Shown here in pieces: positions 35,491 through 41,927 of a stretch of 64,000 bases of DNA. The stretch lies in IMG/VR virus record IMGVR_UViG_3300014205_000172, positions 173,172-237,171 of that record; one strand, 5' to 3'. The notes beneath the pieces are model-generated. The model did no database searches, was not told the DNA's origin, and was given only the letters and a program-made list of their open reading frames with translations. This DNA comes from a virus. Its lineage: Duplodnaviria; Caudoviricetes. Every line of letters begins with the position of its first letter. Within the stretch, counting starts at the first letter, position 1. A program made the translations under genes and the position numbers.

Positions 35491-35901
35491 ATGGCAGTAG
35501 AAGACGGTCTTTTAAAAACAGCGTTGATTGAAGCCCGCTATGCAATTCCTCGTGAAATCTTGGAGATTGCAGGCGGACAACCTTTCATTGACAAGGTAGT
35601 GACTGAACGACTTGAAGAAGTGCGTAATCAAACACTAAAGAATATTCCACCAAGTTGGAGGCACAAAGTAGTTCGTTACATCGTTACTCGGCTAAAGCAG
35701 GCTATCTCTGAAGTGCATGCCGGAGACAGAAAGCAGAATGACCTTAAACGTTGGGAAATCACCGTCATGAATCAGGGAAGGTTCAATGAGTTTCTTGATG
35801 GATACACGGAAGCCGAAGCATTAGCAGATGACTTGATGGATACCATTCTTAAGATCAATAGCATGCGTCGATGTGCTTCAGTAGCAGGAGTAGTCAGATG
35901 A
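35491..35901 (+). CDS. hypothetical protein
   Basis: GGAG SD. Confidence 0.7.
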   Translation: MAVEDGLLKTALIEARYAIPREILEIAGGQPFIDKVVTERLEEVRNQTLKNIPPSWRHKVVRYIVTRLKQAISEVHAGDRKQNDLKRWEITVMNQGRFNEFLDGYTEAEALADDLMDTILKINSMRRCASVAGVVR

Positions 35902-36116: not shown

Positions 36117-36151
36117 GCATACAGCCAGCCCACTGTGGGCTGGCTGTATGC
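36117..36151. terminator. bidirectional hairpin between convergent genes
   Basis: GCATACAGCCAGCCCA-CTG-TGGGCTGGCTGTATGC. Confidence 0.8.
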
Positions 36152-36157
36152 CGCTTA

Positions 36158-36946
36158 CTAAACGTGTAGATAGCTGTGCTCTTTGGGGATATTGGCGTAC
36201 GCTGGCGATCCAGGAAACACGATATCGGATGCAGGGATATCGCTACTGTAAACATATTCGTTTACAGTCTTCTGAAACGGCAGCCTTTCGACAAACTCCA
36301 GCGATTCGGTATTAAGCTTAACCAAGAGCGGTATGCCGTAGAGACCGGAGTATGCCTTGGATGGCGTGAACCAGATTTTATTGCCCTTAATCCTGGCGTC
36401 ATTACTTCCATTGGCCTTAATGGATAGCCCCACACGACCTATTAGGTCAGGCGATGTCCTAGTGCCATGGAATAAGTAGATGTGTTTATTTGCAGTCCTG
36501 GCGTGAGCGAGCGCTTTCTCCTCGCCAAACTGGTTCTTATAACCCTCTACCAGACCACTGAACAGTTCAAAGGAGGCTTCCCCCATATCGGCTTCGCTCA
36601 AGATAACGCCTTTAATGGACGAATGTCCTTGAGTTATGGCTTTATACGCCCTATGAAAACCGTCCACGGTCACCAGAGTACCATCAGATCTCCGTAGGGC
36701 GATTATGGGAAAGCCGTCAATCGTTACAGCATCAAGACGCTTTTTACTGATACGGTCATGCGGGTACTGGTGTTTTAGCTCAGACAGTTTAATGTTTACA
36801 ACTGGCTTACCTTTAGCATAAGTCTGTAACTGCTCGACTGTACGCGACCATTTACTTTCAAGCTCTACGTCTCTCGAAGCGTAGTTGGATACATCCAGTC
36901 CACCAGACTCCATGGCGATGGCGAGCAACGTCTTTCGCATAGTCAT
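36158..36946 (-). CDS. putative virion-packaged ParB/Srx-N + ADP-ribosyltransferase-like fusion
   Basis: Leader LLAIAMES; PII...VDGFHR (ParB-N); LFHGT...GL...IWFT...Y...NEYV (HYE-type ART-like). Confidence 0.65.
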   Translation of the reverse strand: MTMRKTLLAIAMESGGLDVSNYASRDVELESKWSRTVEQLQTYAKGKPVVNIKLSELKHQYPHDRISKKRLDAVTIDGFPIIALRRSDGTLVTVDGFHRAYKAITQGHSSIKGVILSEADMGEASFELFSGLVEGYKNQFGEEKALAHARTANKHIYLFHGTRTSPDLIGRVGLSIKANGSNDARIKGNKIWFTPSKAYSGLYGIPLLVKLNTESLEFVERLPFQKTVNEYVYSSDIPASDIVFPGSPAYANIPKEHSYLHV

Positions 36947-36956
36947 TTTACAGCCC

Positions 36957-38075
36957 TTAAGCAGGCGCGCTGGTTTTAACAGATTTGATGCCGATCAGGG
37001 CCTTCAGATCGTTATAAACACGGATGTGGCCGCTTTGTTCAGTCGATACCAGAGCGACGATGCGCTGACCAACGGTCATGGCACGGGTCGAGACACCACG
37101 GAACAAAAGAGCTTCATGAGCGTCTTTCGCTTTACTGGCGTCGTTGAGCAAGCTCTTCTCAAGATCGGCAGTAATCTTGGCAAAGTGCGCAACCATACCT
37201 TCGAACCACTGAACCTTGTCAGAAACATGTTTGGTCAGTTCGAGAATTTGATCTGGGCGGTATTCGTAATCGGTAGTGGTTGGGCCATGAAGGAACCGAG
37301 CCTTTGCTTCCTCAATCAATTTCGGAGCAGGATCGGCCTCAATGTACTTGATCAGGTTCTCGTTGGTCTGTATCAACGCCTCGGAGTTAATGAACGAGTG
37401 TTCGTTAATCAGAAGATTGCCTTTCTGATCTTTGAACGATAATACGTTCCCGTGATCTTCGGTCGGTTCTTTATCCAGCTCTTGAATAACCAAAGATGAC
37501 TGAAGCTTACCGCCAGCGACAAACATAGTTAGCTGAGGATGGTGGCCTCTAACGAAAGCCGACTGGTCAACGTTGGTGTGTTCGTTGCCTTTCCAGTGCG
37601 CTTCGATCGCTGCCTGATCATCCTTGACTTTCTTGGCGCGCATGCGGGCGAAGATGTTCAGACGACCCAAAGCCTTGACGAAAGCTTCCCACTTCTCTTT
37701 CAGCCAGGCAATCAACTTGCTGATTACGCCAGCCGACTTCTGTTTGACTGCACCAGCATCAGCCGTCGCTGCTTCAAACGAAGGGGCCAGAGTGCCAAGA
37801 GGAATCTCGACCCCATGAACCGCCATCAGATGGTTCAGCTTGCCCTGATAACTCTCGAAGGATTCTTGAGTGAACGCTTCACCGCCGTTGTGGGAAAGCG
37901 ATTCCAGCGACTCGGCAAACTTGAGGGCATTCATAAGTTCGTCTGCACGGGCTTCGGTGGCATAGAGGAGTTCGTCAAAAACCTCATCCGAATCCACTTC
38001 ATAGCCCATGGTCTCTTCAGGCAACACCTCGCCCGACTCCATCGCGATCGCCAACATCGTTTTTTCAAAGCTCAT
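36957..38075 (-). CDS. phiKZ-type internal head/virion protein
   Basis: Acidic propeptide with AMES, SLES, SFES and SFEA sites, then the amphipathic helix ISKLIAWLKEKWEAF. Confidence 0.7.
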   Translation of the reverse strand: MSFEKTMLAIAMESGEVLPEETMGYEVDSDEVFDELLYATEARADELMNALKFAESLESLSHNGGEAFTQESFESYQGKLNHLMAVHGVEIPLGTLAPSFEAATADAGAVKQKSAGVISKLIAWLKEKWEAFVKALGRLNIFARMRAKKVKDDQAAIEAHWKGNEHTNVDQSAFVRGHHPQLTMFVAGGKLQSSLVIQELDKEPTEDHGNVLSFKDQKGNLLINEHSFINSEALIQTNENLIKYIEADPAPKLIEEAKARFLHGPTTTDYEYRPDQILELTKHVSDKVQWFEGMVAHFAKITADLEKSLLNDASKAKDAHEALLFRGVSTRAMTVGQRIVALVSTEQSGHIRVYNDLKALIGIKSVKTSAPA

Positions 38076-38119
38076 GAATATTCCCCTATAAAGATGCCGG
38101 CCTTTCAGCCGGCTATTGA

Positions 38120-40645
38120 TTATTTAGCCGTAACACGCTTGATGTTGATCGTGTAACCACGCAGAGTGCCAATGATGTCCACTGGTTCACACCGCAGGAC
38201 GTTTTCGGTAATGGTACCTTGCGTTTTGTACTCACCATTCATTCCATTGACAGGATTGAAGTTCTCAACCCAACCATCTTCAGCATCAGGACGAAGCGTA
38301 TAGATGTAAACGTTCAGCTTTTCGATGTCTGATTTGCTGACATCTTCGTCTACCACTTCAATGTCCAAGCGGTGAGCTTTAGCGTCGTACTTGTAACGCT
38401 GCAGGTTCCACTTCTTCTCAATGGCCGAACTGATACCAAGCATCATGGCATCTTGCTTCTTGTCGCAGCTATAGAGCCAGGTGTTGTCTTCGATCTTGTC
38501 CCACTTAACCAACTCGCCACTGTGTTTGAAACCAGGCTTGAGCTCATCCTGCTTATAAGCAGAAGAGTGGTACAAGTACGTAGGCAGCTTAATCAAAGGC
38601 TCACTGATTTCCTTTTCACCAACTGGCGGTTCGAGCGTCTGGTTATCAAACGACTCCATTGCCAGATCGATCAGACCATCGAGGTAGTCATGCTTGGATT
38701 CCAACTGCATGGTGTCCAAGTCGACGTTAGAAACGCCCAGGATCGAAGCGGTCATTTCAGCCGACCACTGCATGATGTCGTTACTGCGGGTAGAGATGTT
38801 CGGCTTATCACCGGTGTCCAGCAGCACGTCCCACACATCGACTGGCGTATCTTGACCCAAACGAGCAGCACGGGCAACTGTCTGAATACGGATCGCTTCA
38901 CGGAAGGGTTGGTTGATCAGGATGATCGAACTAGCCGCCGTCAGAGGCACCGCTGTGGATAGAGAAGGATAAGTCGCCAGCAGTGGGTTGATGTCATCAT
39001 TCTCAAAGAACGACTTCACGATAGCCGACAGGTTCTTGTTGGTAGCGCCATAAACCGCAGCTGTCTCGTAGCCTTGCTGTGTGATCAGCTTATTAGCCTT
39101 CTCCAGCACTTCAACAAAGCTTGTAAAGATCAGCGTCTTTTTCTGAGCACCATCAATCAACTTCGAAAAGTCAATGTGGTCGACCATGTCCAAGTGACAC
39201 TTAGAACGAGAGCCACCCAACACGGTACCCAGGCATTCGCCGAGAATGGTTAGGTTGACGTACTTGACGACTGACTTCGCTTTACGGAAGTCATCCTTCA
39301 TGGCGTTTGGCAATGCAGGAATGATCACCTTACGCTCAAAGCTGTTGGCCATCATCGACTCAGCTTTCATCGTCTTAGGATCAAAGCCTTTACTGATCAA
39401 AGCCACAGCCGCTTTGTAAGCAGCATAATCGGCTTTGTTGTAATGAGCGTGTTGCTCAAAGTACGTCAGCGCACGGTCATAGTCGTTTTTGAATTCAGCC
39501 TTGTGCTTATCGTAGAACGCAGTACGCTCTTCGATGAACTTACGCATCTTCTCGCCGATCGCTTCCAGGGTGTACTCATTACCGGTTGGCATTTTAACCA
39601 ATACGGTTTTGGTGTTCACTGGAATGTCGACTACGTCTTGTTTAGGGACGTGGTACTTCAAGTGACCAATACGGTTACGCAGGATGTCGTTGGCGCGTTT
39701 TGCATCACGACCATAGATCTTACGGAAGCGTTCTTCAGCCTCTTCATTAAACAGTGGGTCAATGCATTTAAGAAACGGGATGCACTCAACACCCAGTGCT
39801 TGGATCGGCGTACCCGATGCCCACAGGTTGACCCTGATTTGCGGCATAGATGCTAGGTCGATGTAGATCTGAGTACGGTCCGACGACATGCGGTTGAAGT
39901 TGTGGGATTCGTCCAGCCCCAGATACGTGTTTTCGAAATCACGAGGGTTTGCTTTGACGTAATCCGCCATTTGCTTCAACTGCTCGTAATGCACGATGTA
40001 GTAATAAGCATTGCTGTGCAGCGGCTTATCTTCAGTCGACACCCAGTACGGCAGTTTCTTCAGCATGATGTCAGCAACAGTATCACGCCAGACACGCTCT
40101 ACCGAGTTCTTCGGTACCACGATGATCATCTTTTTCACGCCTAGGCAGTGGGCAAGGATGATCTGTGTAACGGTCTTACCGGTACCGGCGCCTGCGTCCA
40201 ACATGTAACCACGCAGACGATAAGCCGGAACCATCCGGCCGAAGTGTCTGACGAAATCACGCTGGAAAGGTTTGAGTGGAAAAGGTACCAGATGGTCAAT
40301 ATCTTTTTCATCAGTGATCGACGCAATCACACGGTCGATGTCACCTACCCAAGTTTTCTCTTTCAGCTCATGGATCACTTTAGTCAGCACACGGCGAGAT
40401 GTGCGTGTCTGCGGATCGGCAATCAGGGTCTCACAAACGTACTTAAAATCCAAAGCGAAGAAGTGCAAAAAGCGCAACTTACCGCTCTGGATAGCAGAGA
40501 ACATTTGGTTCCCTACTTGATTCGAGCCCCACGATCTGTACATATCCCGAAGGAGCGTAAAGGTATCAATACCCTCCACAGTAATGTACTTTGGCGTGGA
40601 ATACACATCTACAACGCCAAGAGTTTTCTTAATAGAAGAAAACAT
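38120..40645 (-). CDS. SF2 (SNF2-like) helicase with a C-terminal ART-like domain
   Basis: GAGTGKT, LDESH, SGTP and QTVARAARLGQ; tail after LAMES reads LYHSS...LKP...WLYS...YIYTL...GEY. Confidence 0.85.
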   Translation of the reverse strand: MFSSIKKTLGVVDVYSTPKYITVEGIDTFTLLRDMYRSWGSNQVGNQMFSAIQSGKLRFLHFFALDFKYVCETLIADPQTRTSRRVLTKVIHELKEKTWVGDIDRVIASITDEKDIDHLVPFPLKPFQRDFVRHFGRMVPAYRLRGYMLDAGAGTGKTVTQIILAHCLGVKKMIIVVPKNSVERVWRDTVADIMLKKLPYWVSTEDKPLHSNAYYYIVHYEQLKQMADYVKANPRDFENTYLGLDESHNFNRMSSDRTQIYIDLASMPQIRVNLWASGTPIQALGVECIPFLKCIDPLFNEEAEERFRKIYGRDAKRANDILRNRIGHLKYHVPKQDVVDIPVNTKTVLVKMPTGNEYTLEAIGEKMRKFIEERTAFYDKHKAEFKNDYDRALTYFEQHAHYNKADYAAYKAAVALISKGFDPKTMKAESMMANSFERKVIIPALPNAMKDDFRKAKSVVKYVNLTILGECLGTVLGGSRSKCHLDMVDHIDFSKLIDGAQKKTLIFTSFVEVLEKANKLITQQGYETAAVYGATNKNLSAIVKSFFENDDINPLLATYPSLSTAVPLTAASSIILINQPFREAIRIQTVARAARLGQDTPVDVWDVLLDTGDKPNISTRSNDIMQWSAEMTASILGVSNVDLDTMQLESKHDYLDGLIDLAMESFDNQTLEPPVGEKEISEPLIKLPTYLYHSSAYKQDELKPGFKHSGELVKWDKIEDNTWLYSCDKKQDAMMLGISSAIEKKWNLQRYKYDAKAHRLDIEVVDEDVSKSDIEKLNVYIYTLRPDAEDGWVENFNPVNGMNGEYKTQGTITENVLRCEPVDIIGTLRGYTINIKRVTAK

Positions 40646-41091: not shown

Positions 41092-41120
41092 TTGATATGT
41101 CCCCACCGGAGCTAAGTGAA

Positions 41121-41927
41121 ATGGATAAGAAGGATGAAGTTAAAAGACTGCTGGGTCTTGCGGTCAGAGATAAAGACTTAGGTCCGATGGTCCTCAAGAA
41201 GAATTTGAATGATTTGGTCTTGATTGAACATGATGGGAAGAGCGTTGGTTTTGCAATCCCTCGTTTTGAAAAAGACGGTCATTGGCGTACAGGTCCTATC
41301 TTTATTGAACCTGGGTATCGTAAGAAAGGTATTGCCTCAGCATGGATCACTGAGTTCTTTAAAGGTAAAAAAGGAAGAGCTTGGATCGAACCCCATAACC
41401 ATGCCAGTCAGGGCGCCTTCTCAAAGGCCGGGTTCCATAAAACAGGTAAGGAGCTCAATACCTCCGGCGAACACTTCCTTGAGTACTCGGTTGAATCAGC
41501 AGCTACCTCCGCTGAACAACGATTGATCGACCTAGCGTTAAAAGATCCACGTTTAGGTCCCGCTGCAGTTACCACAGACCCTAATCAACTAGTCTGGGTT
41601 TATGATGATAACAAAAAGAAGGTGGGTTTCTTTACACCTAAGCAGGAACCAGATGGCAGGTACAGAACCGGTACCATCTTTATCGAACCTTCAGAACGCG
41701 GTAAAGGGTACGGATCGAACGCTGTGAATTCGTTCTTCAATGGCGCTACCACACCGGGTCGTGCTTGGATCGAGCCTACCAACGTGCCAAGTCAAACCAT
41801 CTTTAAAAAGGCAGGATTCTATAAATCAGGTCGTCACACGATGTCGAAGACAACACCCAGACTGTTTGAAGAATGGATTAACAAACCAGAACCACCATTA
41901 GTATCACGACCAGTGCTTGGTTGGTAA
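41121..41927 (+). CDS. tandem two-domain GNAT acetyltransferase
   Basis: IFIEPGYRKKGIA...N.ASQ..F.KAGF and IFIEPSERGKGYG...N.PSQ..F.KAGF. Confidence 0.85.
   Translation: MDKKDEVKRLLGLAVRDKDLGPMVLKKNLNDLVLIEHDGKSVGFAIPRFEKDGHWRTGPIFIEPGYRKKGIASAWITEFFKGKKGRAWIEPHNHASQGAFSKAGFHKTGKELNTSGEHFLEYSVESAATSAEQRLIDLALKDPRLGPAAVTTDPNQLVWVYDDNKKKVGFFTPKQEPDGRYRTGTIFIEPSERGKGYGSNAVNSFFNGATTPGRAWIEPTNVPSQTIFKKAGFYKSGRHTMSKTTPRLFEEWINKPEPPLVSRPVLGW

Follow-up and report, generated by a model that had tools for sequence, protein, structure and literature searches.

Organization of the P0001 open reading frame

The window analyzed here, 64 kb at the end of an IMG/VR virus record of 237 kb (IMGVR_UViG_3300014205_000172, designated G000 and rated 95% complete), carries on its minus strand an open reading frame (ORF) of 262 amino acids, P0001 (window positions 36158-36946), which we propose as a candidate enzyme cargo of the phage capsid. 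The open frame is divisible into a short leader, a ParB/sulfiredoxin (Srx) module, a linker, and an ADP-ribosyltransferase (ART) domain, and its ATG is preceded by an AAGGG box 8 nt upstream. An original prediction, drawn from the nucleotide sequence alone, had described this ORF as a probable virion-injected polyprotein whose two nucleotide-using domains are separated by a protease site, and all the sequence strings quoted there were present in P0001 at the places given. An independent wastewater contig (27.8 kb) spans the P0001 stretch with five substitutions in 2.3 kb and with neither an indel nor a joint, and the fused ORF is therefore not an assembly artefact. Five of the seven natural variants inside P0001 were synonymous, and no form of P0001 devoid of the ParB module was found among the contigs of the sequencing runs.

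The record represents a giant phiKZ-like phage, for which the sources were landfill and wastewater. At the Pfam level it encodes at least five phiKZ_IP (PF12699) paralogs, together with a prohead protease of the Peptidase_S80 family (PF20034; G000:C1:55556-56131; 193.6 bits; 31% identity to SPN3US gp245), so that the phiKZ gp175-type protease invoked by the original prediction does have its gene in this phage. The T4 gp21 protease family (PF03420), on the other hand, gave no match in G000. An 841-aa helicase encoded near P0001 was approximately 40% identical to the helicases of Erwinia, Klebsiella, Serratia, Pseudomonas, Xanthomonas, and Burkholderia jumbo phages, and the GenBank phage collection contained no match to the region by megablast and none to P0001 or its upstream neighbor P0002 by tblastn. 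The phiKZ_IP paralogs, the S80 protease, the relatives of the helicase, and the lack of close GenBank DNA together indicated a distant, uncultured phiKZ-like jumbo phage. A genome search and a local tblastn search of the 95%-complete record found no homolog of the SPN3US major capsid protein gp75, and the capsid protein of this phage is thus either very divergent or located in the missing part of the record.

Predicted structure of the ParB/sulfiredoxin-fold module

A structural model of P0001 was built with AlphaFold2 (AF2) from an alignment of 50 sequences (A3), which gave a mean predicted local distance difference test score (pLDDT) of 83.8; single-sequence AF2 was unusable (pLDDT 35), and two combined alignments (A4 and A5) were discarded because they misaligned the H-G-T motif of the ART domain onto the D-G-F-H-R motif of the preceding module. 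The pLDDT exceeded 90 for residues ~40-120 and ~150-260 and was low for residues 1-35 and for the linker at residues 121-150.

The first confidently modeled segment, residues ~36-122 (36581-36841, minus strand, as are all the P0001 coordinates given below), was predicted to adopt the ParB/sulfiredoxin fold. A Foldseek search against the PDB ranked ParB-CDP, Noc, sulfiredoxin, PadC, and SbnI highest, with probabilities of 0.99-1.00, and VIA returned sulfiredoxin (Z 7.7), free serine kinase (6.8), and KorB (6.3). Among viral models in BFVD, the matches were ParB/Srx proteins of the phiKZ-like phages Psa21 (TM-score 0.83, root-mean-square deviation 1.2 over 88 columns) and EL, and the family profile of the module matched SbnI in the PDB (E 0.013). 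The phosphate-binding motif of the superfamily was identified as D95-G-F-H-R99 (36650-36664), downstream of the P-I-I stretch at residues 80-82, and it aligns with D-G-V-H-R of SbnI by HMMER and with G-G-C-H-R of sulfiredoxin. In 15 relatives Gly96 was invariant and Asp95 nearly so, and the motif was kept by 13 of them, the other two being without H-R.

These structural matches and the motif bear out the ParB/Srx-like character that had been predicted for the N-terminal half. As for the label ParB itself, the fold stood, whereas a match to the Pfam ParB_N family (PF02195) was found nowhere in G000 at E values up to 10, and the module, with its ~85 residues, has no part able to form a helix-turn-helix parS-binding domain or a dimerization domain. 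Judging from the model, the module is a bare ParB/Srx nucleotide-binding fold and no canonical partition ParB.

Predicted structure of the ADP-ribosyltransferase domain

The second confident segment, residues 151-262 (36161-36496; pLDDT mostly above 90), was predicted to be a minimal ART-fold domain of the H-Y-E type, i.e., the type of diphtheria toxin and the PARPs. Approximately 38 of the 50 rows listed by VIA were ARTs with Z-scores of 5-8.3, including TreX (8.3), KptA (7.7), diphtheria toxin (7.1), tankyrase (6.8), and PARP1 (5.5), and the list also held CARDS, Scabin, pertussis toxin, PARP2/3/4/10/15/16, PARP13, Arr, and DarT. Foldseek likewise returned Tpt1 and TreX, so that structural searches matched both halves of P0001 to the expected folds, and the ESM Atlas neighbors of the domain were clusters of the PARP type and small phage clusters. 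In this model-based assignment the weight comes from the uniformity of the list and from coverage of the whole domain, the single Z-scores being middling. At the sequence level, weak Pfam matches were obtained within the ART family (six of its 15 members to ART-PolyVal and three to PARP), and the family profile yielded a weak match to KptA alone in the PDB (E 0.2-0.4).

The putative catalytic residues were located in this fold as follows. His160, predicted to bind nicotinamide adenine dinucleotide (NAD+), stands where the first core strand ends (36467-36469) within L-F-H-G-T (residues 158-162), a stretch that aligns with L-Y-H-G-T of KptA, and its position is occupied by His in 13 of 15 relatives and by Arg in two. 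Trp192, part of I-W-F-T (residues 191-194), and Tyr203 constitute a W-x10-Y pair (36338-36373) modeled as a strand followed by a helix; Tyr203 is nearly invariant, and family members carry W, F, or S at position 192. Diphtheria toxin and PARP1 carry Y-x10-Y, and, judged by established motif knowledge and spacing, the W192-x10-Y203 pair may be the equivalent of this nicotinamide-stacking pair. The predicted catalytic Glu230 (36257-36259) belongs to N-E-Y (residues 229-231) and opens the fifth core strand (residues 230-233), with E-Y being invariant in all 15 and in all 18 relatives compared. In the AF2 model, His160, Trp192/Tyr203, and Glu230 occupy the strands that carry the H-Y-E triad in diphtheria toxin and the PARPs. 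The ART fold and this H-aromatic-E arrangement agree with the H-Y-E ART-like domain that the original prediction had placed in the C-terminal half.

The domain lacks the set of Arg, S-T-S, and [QE]-x-E motifs that marks R-S-E enzymes, as His replaces Arg and neither Gln nor Glu stands two residues before Glu230 (V-N-E). Because no [QE]-x-E precedes the Glu, we grouped the domain with the diphtheria-toxin/PARP clade rather than with the Alt/cholera-toxin type; the fold match alone would leave the clade unfixed, since the top structural match, TreX, is an R-S-E enzyme (PMC11606950). Assignment as a Tpt1/KptA RNA 2'-phosphotransferase was rejected, as PF01885 gave no match, the NAD+ lobe alone aligns (KptA residues 91-180), and the preceding domain is ParB/Srx with no winged helix.

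The ART relatives P0032, P0033, P0015, and P0017 include fusions to an N-terminal LigD 3'-phosphoesterase domain (50.9 bits) or to a C-terminal SET domain (45.1 bits) as well as the proteins with Arg in place of the His of H-G-T. The fusions show that the ART family becomes joined to nucleic-acid-end and protein-modifying enzymes alike, and they are compatible with either kind of substrate.

A leader shared with internal head proteins

The leader comprises residues 1-13 (36908-36946; pLDDT 53-66 in this region), ends in A-M-E (residues 11-13), and is proposed as a capsid-targeting propeptide with a first protease site. P0001 shares 11 of its 15 N-terminal residues, including most of K-T-L-L-A-I-A-M-E-S (residues 5-14), with P0002 (372 aa; 36957-38075, minus strand), which lies 10 nt away, and BLASTP detected no other similarity between the two proteins. 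The likeness to the neighbor's leader noticed by the original prediction proved to be part of a wider set: the pattern [LIM][AS][LIM]ESG[EG] occurred in 5 of 460 genome ORFs, in each case within the first 30 residues, and in none of 200 shuffles. Besides P0001 and P0002, the bearers are one phiKZ_IP member (52.7 bits; phrog label 'internal head protein') and two ORFs that come immediately after the Peptidase_S80 gene, and they span three distant loci of G000. P0002 had been taken for a head protein; its leader and its 27% identity over 211 aa to a true phiKZ_IP paralog (L004) speak for this, whereas its phiKZ_IP score of 19.7 bits stays under the cut-off of 27, and it is best described as a divergent relative of the internal head proteins. 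P0001 gave no match to PF12699, and the leader is the sole part that it has in common with those proteins.

Head proteases of the phiKZ type cleave after Glu in S/A/G-x-E or A-x-E, phiKZ gp93 is cleaved at SLE-13, and the SPN3US paralogs gp53/54 have an identical 15-residue N-terminus with such sites, which has been likened to the T4 capsid-targeting sequence (PMC5694885). A-M-E(13) of P0001 agrees exactly with this published pattern, and we infer by analogy that the leader would direct P0001 to the prohead. A broader motif, [SA]-hydrophobic-E-[SD], occurred inside the first 30 residues of five of the seven Pfam-defined phiKZ_IP paralogs of G000 and inside the first 60 residues of 16 of 278 gene-like ORFs.

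The two leader-bearing ORFs that adjoin the Peptidase_S80 gene downstream encode 461 aa (L003, G000:C1:56345-57730) and 479 aa (L014, 57743-59182). The former showed a weak match to the 2H (2'-5' RNA ligase) superfamily (18.5 bits, under the cut-off) and may be a further enzyme cargo. In two other ORFs, G000:C1:102497-103357 and 122632-123957, an [SA]-hydrophobic-E-S motif was observed in the first 30 residues (A-F-E-S at 29 and S-M-E-S at 10, respectively), and these may be additional protease substrates.

Modular architecture and the putative second cleavage site

Counting both domains, 24 relatives of P0001 were found among 1.84 billion cluster representatives, each covering one half of the protein. 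Two close relatives were P0003 and P0004 (158 aa), in which the same leader is followed by a few residues, E-S-F-E, and an ART part 79% identical to that of P0001. BLASTP aligned residues 1-17 of P0001 with residues 1-17 of P0003 and residues 114-262 with residues 10-158. Relative to P0003 and P0004, P0001 thus contains an inserted module at residues 18-120 (36587-36895), the insertion point lying between A-M-E-S-G and G-E-A-S-F-E. Searches with P0004 against viral contigs and with P0019 against genome contigs found no related loci.

The two folded domains of P0001 are connected by a flexible, partly helical linker (residues 121-150; 36497-36586; block-mean pLDDT 46-61, below 50 for residues 132-140), which contains the proposed second protease site, S125-F-E127 (36566-36574), within A-S-F-E (residues 124-127). 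The site that the original prediction had placed between the domains therefore falls in the low-confidence linker and exactly at the border of the inserted module, on its 3' side. The string E-A-S-F-E also recurs at residues ~28-32, the propeptide position, of a phiKZ_IP paralog in G000, and propeptides with multiple closely spaced sites are on record for SPN3US and phiKZ (PMC5694885). Judged from these sequence features, cleavage between the two domains at S-F-E is given a little under even odds.

Elsewhere, the ParB/Srx module was observed either on its own, in proteins of ~90-125 aa encoded by jumbo-size contigs, or fused to other C-terminal parts. Many of the free-standing forms, on several contigs, carry another conserved leader that ends in I-S-x-E. 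In a 325-kb record, G002 (IMGVR_UViG_3300034358_000008), a leader of the form M-S-[LR]-V-N-V...I-S-x-E-S was confined to two ORFs, of which one encodes a ParB/Srx protein (35540-35881) and the other a 609-aa protein of the phiKZ_IP family (238893-240722). In this second lineage, too, a ParB/Srx protein thus bears the internal-head-protein leader of its own phage, with a leader sequence unrelated to that of P0001, and this we regard as the best independent support for the cargo interpretation. Furthermore, E-L-E-S at residues 28-31 of P0001 aligns with the leader junction of the free-standing forms, which suggests that the module arrived with a remnant of its own leader.

A related 250-kb phage, IMGVR_UViG_3300014697_000001 (L012, 13180-14220), has a leaderless ParB/Srx homolog; inspection by eye placed a tubulin-like ORF ~3 kb downstream and a terminase-like ORF ~4 kb upstream. 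In the related record G001, no relative of the ART domain was found.

Gene neighborhood

A perfect 19-bp hairpin (36117-36151; -38.8 kcal/mol, z -7.4) lies a few bases past the P0001 stop codon, in a convergent gap, and none of 200 shuffles folded equally well. This hairpin is likely the terminator of a two-gene unit formed by P0002 and P0001. A further hairpin (38096-38113) separates P0002 from the helicase gene.

The SNF2/DEAD-like helicase of 841 aa (38120-40645, minus strand) is encoded upstream of P0002. It contains an internal D-L-A-M-E-S at residues 660-665 (38651-38662), followed by a C-terminal domain of ~150 aa (phrog_13483). The motif might mark a point at which the helicase, if packaged, is processed, a possibility that is conceivable because phiKZ packages, among its many head proteins, a predicted helicase (PMC13282480). 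The C-terminal domain was also considered as a second ART, a reading that found no support, as hhalign against the ART family gave a probability of 0.67% and the Atlas neighbors were DUF6886-like proteins and unnamed clusters. On the opposite strand, a tandem GNAT acetyltransferase with two GNAT stretches in Pfam (53.9 bits) is encoded at 41097-41927.

Proposed role of P0001 and alternative explanations

The explanation that we favor, with a probability of about 60% for the whole, is that P0001 is a pro-protein loaded into the capsid as enzyme cargo and injected with the DNA. The leader would bring P0001 into the prohead, where the S80 protease would remove it after A-M-E(13) and might also cut after S-F-E(127), freeing a ParB/Srx protein of ~12.5 kDa and an ART of ~15 kDa. 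Both products would remain with the inner-body proteins and leave the capsid by ejection along with the DNA. Early in infection, within its first minutes, the ART would use NAD+ to mono-ADP-ribosylate a host macromolecule in takeover or counter-defence, as T4 Alt does, while the ParB/Srx module might bind or hydrolyze a nucleotide, or bind or nick DNA. The leader and the sites would form a portable packaging cassette, in which the combination of leader and ART presumably came first and a ParB/Srx head protein that had once been free-standing and leader-bearing would later have been inserted between the two cleavage sites. Packaging, cleavage at either Glu, use of NAD+, and injection are thus all inferred steps. 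Macro, NADAR, and ARH genes were not found in G000, and the genome hence gives no hint of a partner for reversal or immunity, in keeping with an effector that acts one way.

Several observations weigh against this explanation. The individual structural Z-scores of the C-terminal domain are middling (5-8.3 by VIA), P0001 had no Pfam match at E values up to 1 and no phmmer match in the PDB, and none of its relatives passed the thresholds of PF00644 PARP (best P0030, 26.3 vs. 26.7) or PF18760 ART-PolyVal (best 21.8 vs. 31.2). At position 192 P0001 has Trp rather than Tyr, and some relatives have Ser. The residue after S-F-E is Leu, compared with Ser or Asp after the N-terminal sites of head proteins. 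A leaderless ParB/Srx paralog of 85 aa, presumably a non-packaged form of the module, is encoded in G000 itself (L002:1480-1737; G000:C1:154024-154281; 35% identity over the matched stretch), and the ParB/Srx homolog of the related phage G001 also has no leader; because of these leaderless homologs, the module is not always cargo.

The Leu after the Glu of S-F-E also bears on how far processing would go. P0001 could be packaged with the leader alone removed, the two domains staying joined so that ParB/Srx steers the ART to a DNA or nucleotide-bound target. Such an intact form is possible, if doubtful: the linker is modeled as helices, polyvalent proteins often hold ParB and ART in a single chain (PMC5512222), and other members of the ART family are fused to LigD 3'-phosphoesterase or SET domains without any known site, but the module sits exactly between two protease-type sites, E-A-S-F-E recurs at the propeptide position of a phiKZ_IP paralog, and both modules stand free elsewhere. 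Conversely, residues 1-127 might be one long propeptide that is used in assembly and then degraded, with the ART alone being delivered. The propeptides of SPN3US gp50, gp53, and gp54 do have this length (124-127 residues; PMC5694885), yet the segment is confidently folded with a conserved nucleotide motif, occurs in other jumbo phages as a free-standing leader-bearing protein, and as a folded 12-kDa domain would be unlikely to exit the capsid, all of which makes a long propeptide very improbable.

Packaging itself would be in question if P0001 acted in the infected cell and the sharing of its N-terminus went back to local duplication or to a common translation-start region. The closest leader is indeed that of the adjacent gene, and leaderless ParB/Srx homologs exist. 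We nevertheless regard this as quite unlikely, since three distant loci, including a true phiKZ_IP gene and the two genes beside the protease, encode the leader, which closes with a protease motif whose Glu is residue 13, like the cleavage site of phiKZ gp93 (PMC5694885), and has a counterpart of different sequence in G002. The C-terminal domain, finally, might have the ART fold and be no transferase, serving instead as an NAD+ glycohydrolase, as an NAD+/ADP-ribose binder, or as a structural component of the inner body. Similarity to known ARTs at the sequence level is entirely sub-threshold, the first aromatic position is variable, and inactive ART folds exist, with PARP13 among the VIA matches; however, His, Tyr203, and Glu-Tyr are kept in relatives down to ~33% identity with P0001 and the natural variants are mostly synonymous, and a non-transferase therefore seems unlikely. 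As to the target of the cargo that we favor, it is a speculative, quite improbable variant that the ART acts on nucleic acid, the ParB/Srx module loading on DNA and the ART ADP-ribosylating DNA or RNA ends or bases so as to shield the incoming genome or to disable host nucleic acids before the protective compartment of the phage is in place. This variant draws on the ART relatives fused to LigD 3'-phosphoesterase, on the resemblance of the domain to the KptA/Tpt1, Scabin, and DarT structures, and on the weak 2H-phosphoesterase signal of another protein with the same leader.

Comparison with known systems and implications

To our knowledge, phiKZ-like jumbo phages of the nucleus-forming type have abundant inner-body and ejected proteins, almost none of which has an assigned activity. 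P0001 would provide concrete candidates for injected factors besides RNA polymerase, at a stage that precedes formation of the early vesicle and of the nucleus. The leader and the [SA]-x-E sites seem to behave as a portable packaging tag to which unrelated enzymes are attached, one of them inserted between two sites, and the tag is thus usable for listing candidate cargo in uncultured jumbo phages. By the same means, capsids of this kind might be loaded with foreign proteins, a use to which the T4 targeting sequence has reportedly been put.

Among annotated proteins, the N-terminal module is closest to the small ParB/Sulfiredoxin proteins of Psa21 (A0A481W5G1) and EL (Q2Z106), which have the same ~90-residue fold (TM-scores of 0.83 and 0.60). 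They are free-standing, whereas the module of P0001 sits behind a head leader and before an ART. With regard to the C-terminal domain, PARP1 carries N-E-Y-I-V-Y, which is resembled by N-E-Y-V-Y of P0001, the H-G-T motif is also alike, and the x10-spaced aromatic pair may correspond. The PARPs differ in possessing a helical regulatory domain and loops that are missing from P0001, which moreover has Trp for the first Tyr and scores under the family threshold, and nothing suggests that it would form a polymer. The domain and its relatives delineate a rare, very small PARP-like ART family that is missing from Pfam.

In its leader ending in [SA]-x-E near residue 13, its protease family, and its phiKZ_IP-like gene neighbors, P0001 resembles the inner-body proteins of phiKZ, 201phi2-1, and SPN3US. 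These known proteins have no assigned enzymatic fold, and P0001 is unrelated to PF12699 beyond the leader; a limited search of the literature, which is no proof of absence, found no report of an enzyme-fold protein with an inner-body leader. P0001, moreover, belongs to a phiKZ-like lineage of jumbo phages that encode RNA polymerases of their own, and ARTs have been reported as less common in this lineage (PMC7824862).

Polyvalent proteins unite several conflict-related enzyme domains in one DNA-delivered chain, in which ParB-like and ART domains recur and processing into units has been proposed (PMC5512222). P0001 shares the multi-domain logic of these proteins, among which ART-PolyVal and DdrB-like ParB domains have been described (Iyer et al., 2017), and the weak ART-PolyVal matches noted above point in the same direction. 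Unlike them, it contains neither a built-in metallopeptidase nor an LPD, is limited to two domains in 262 aa, and would need the head protease for its processing. T4 Alt is a late-made ART whose short N-terminal targeting peptide is cut after Glu by the prohead protease, and the enzyme enters the host by injection after storage in the head (PMC5694885, PMC5512222). The same logic of targeting peptide, cleavage after Glu, and injection is proposed here for P0001. Alt is, however, a large enzyme of the R-S-E clade, whereas P0001 has an H-Y-E core of ~115 residues without detectable similarity to Alt, would depend on an S80 protease rather than gp21, and carries a second enzyme module. What appears from the sequence comparisons to be new relative to T4 Alt and the polyvalent proteins is the combination of a minimal H-Y-E ART family, lying under all Pfam cut-offs, with a phiKZ-type leader and an S80 protease.

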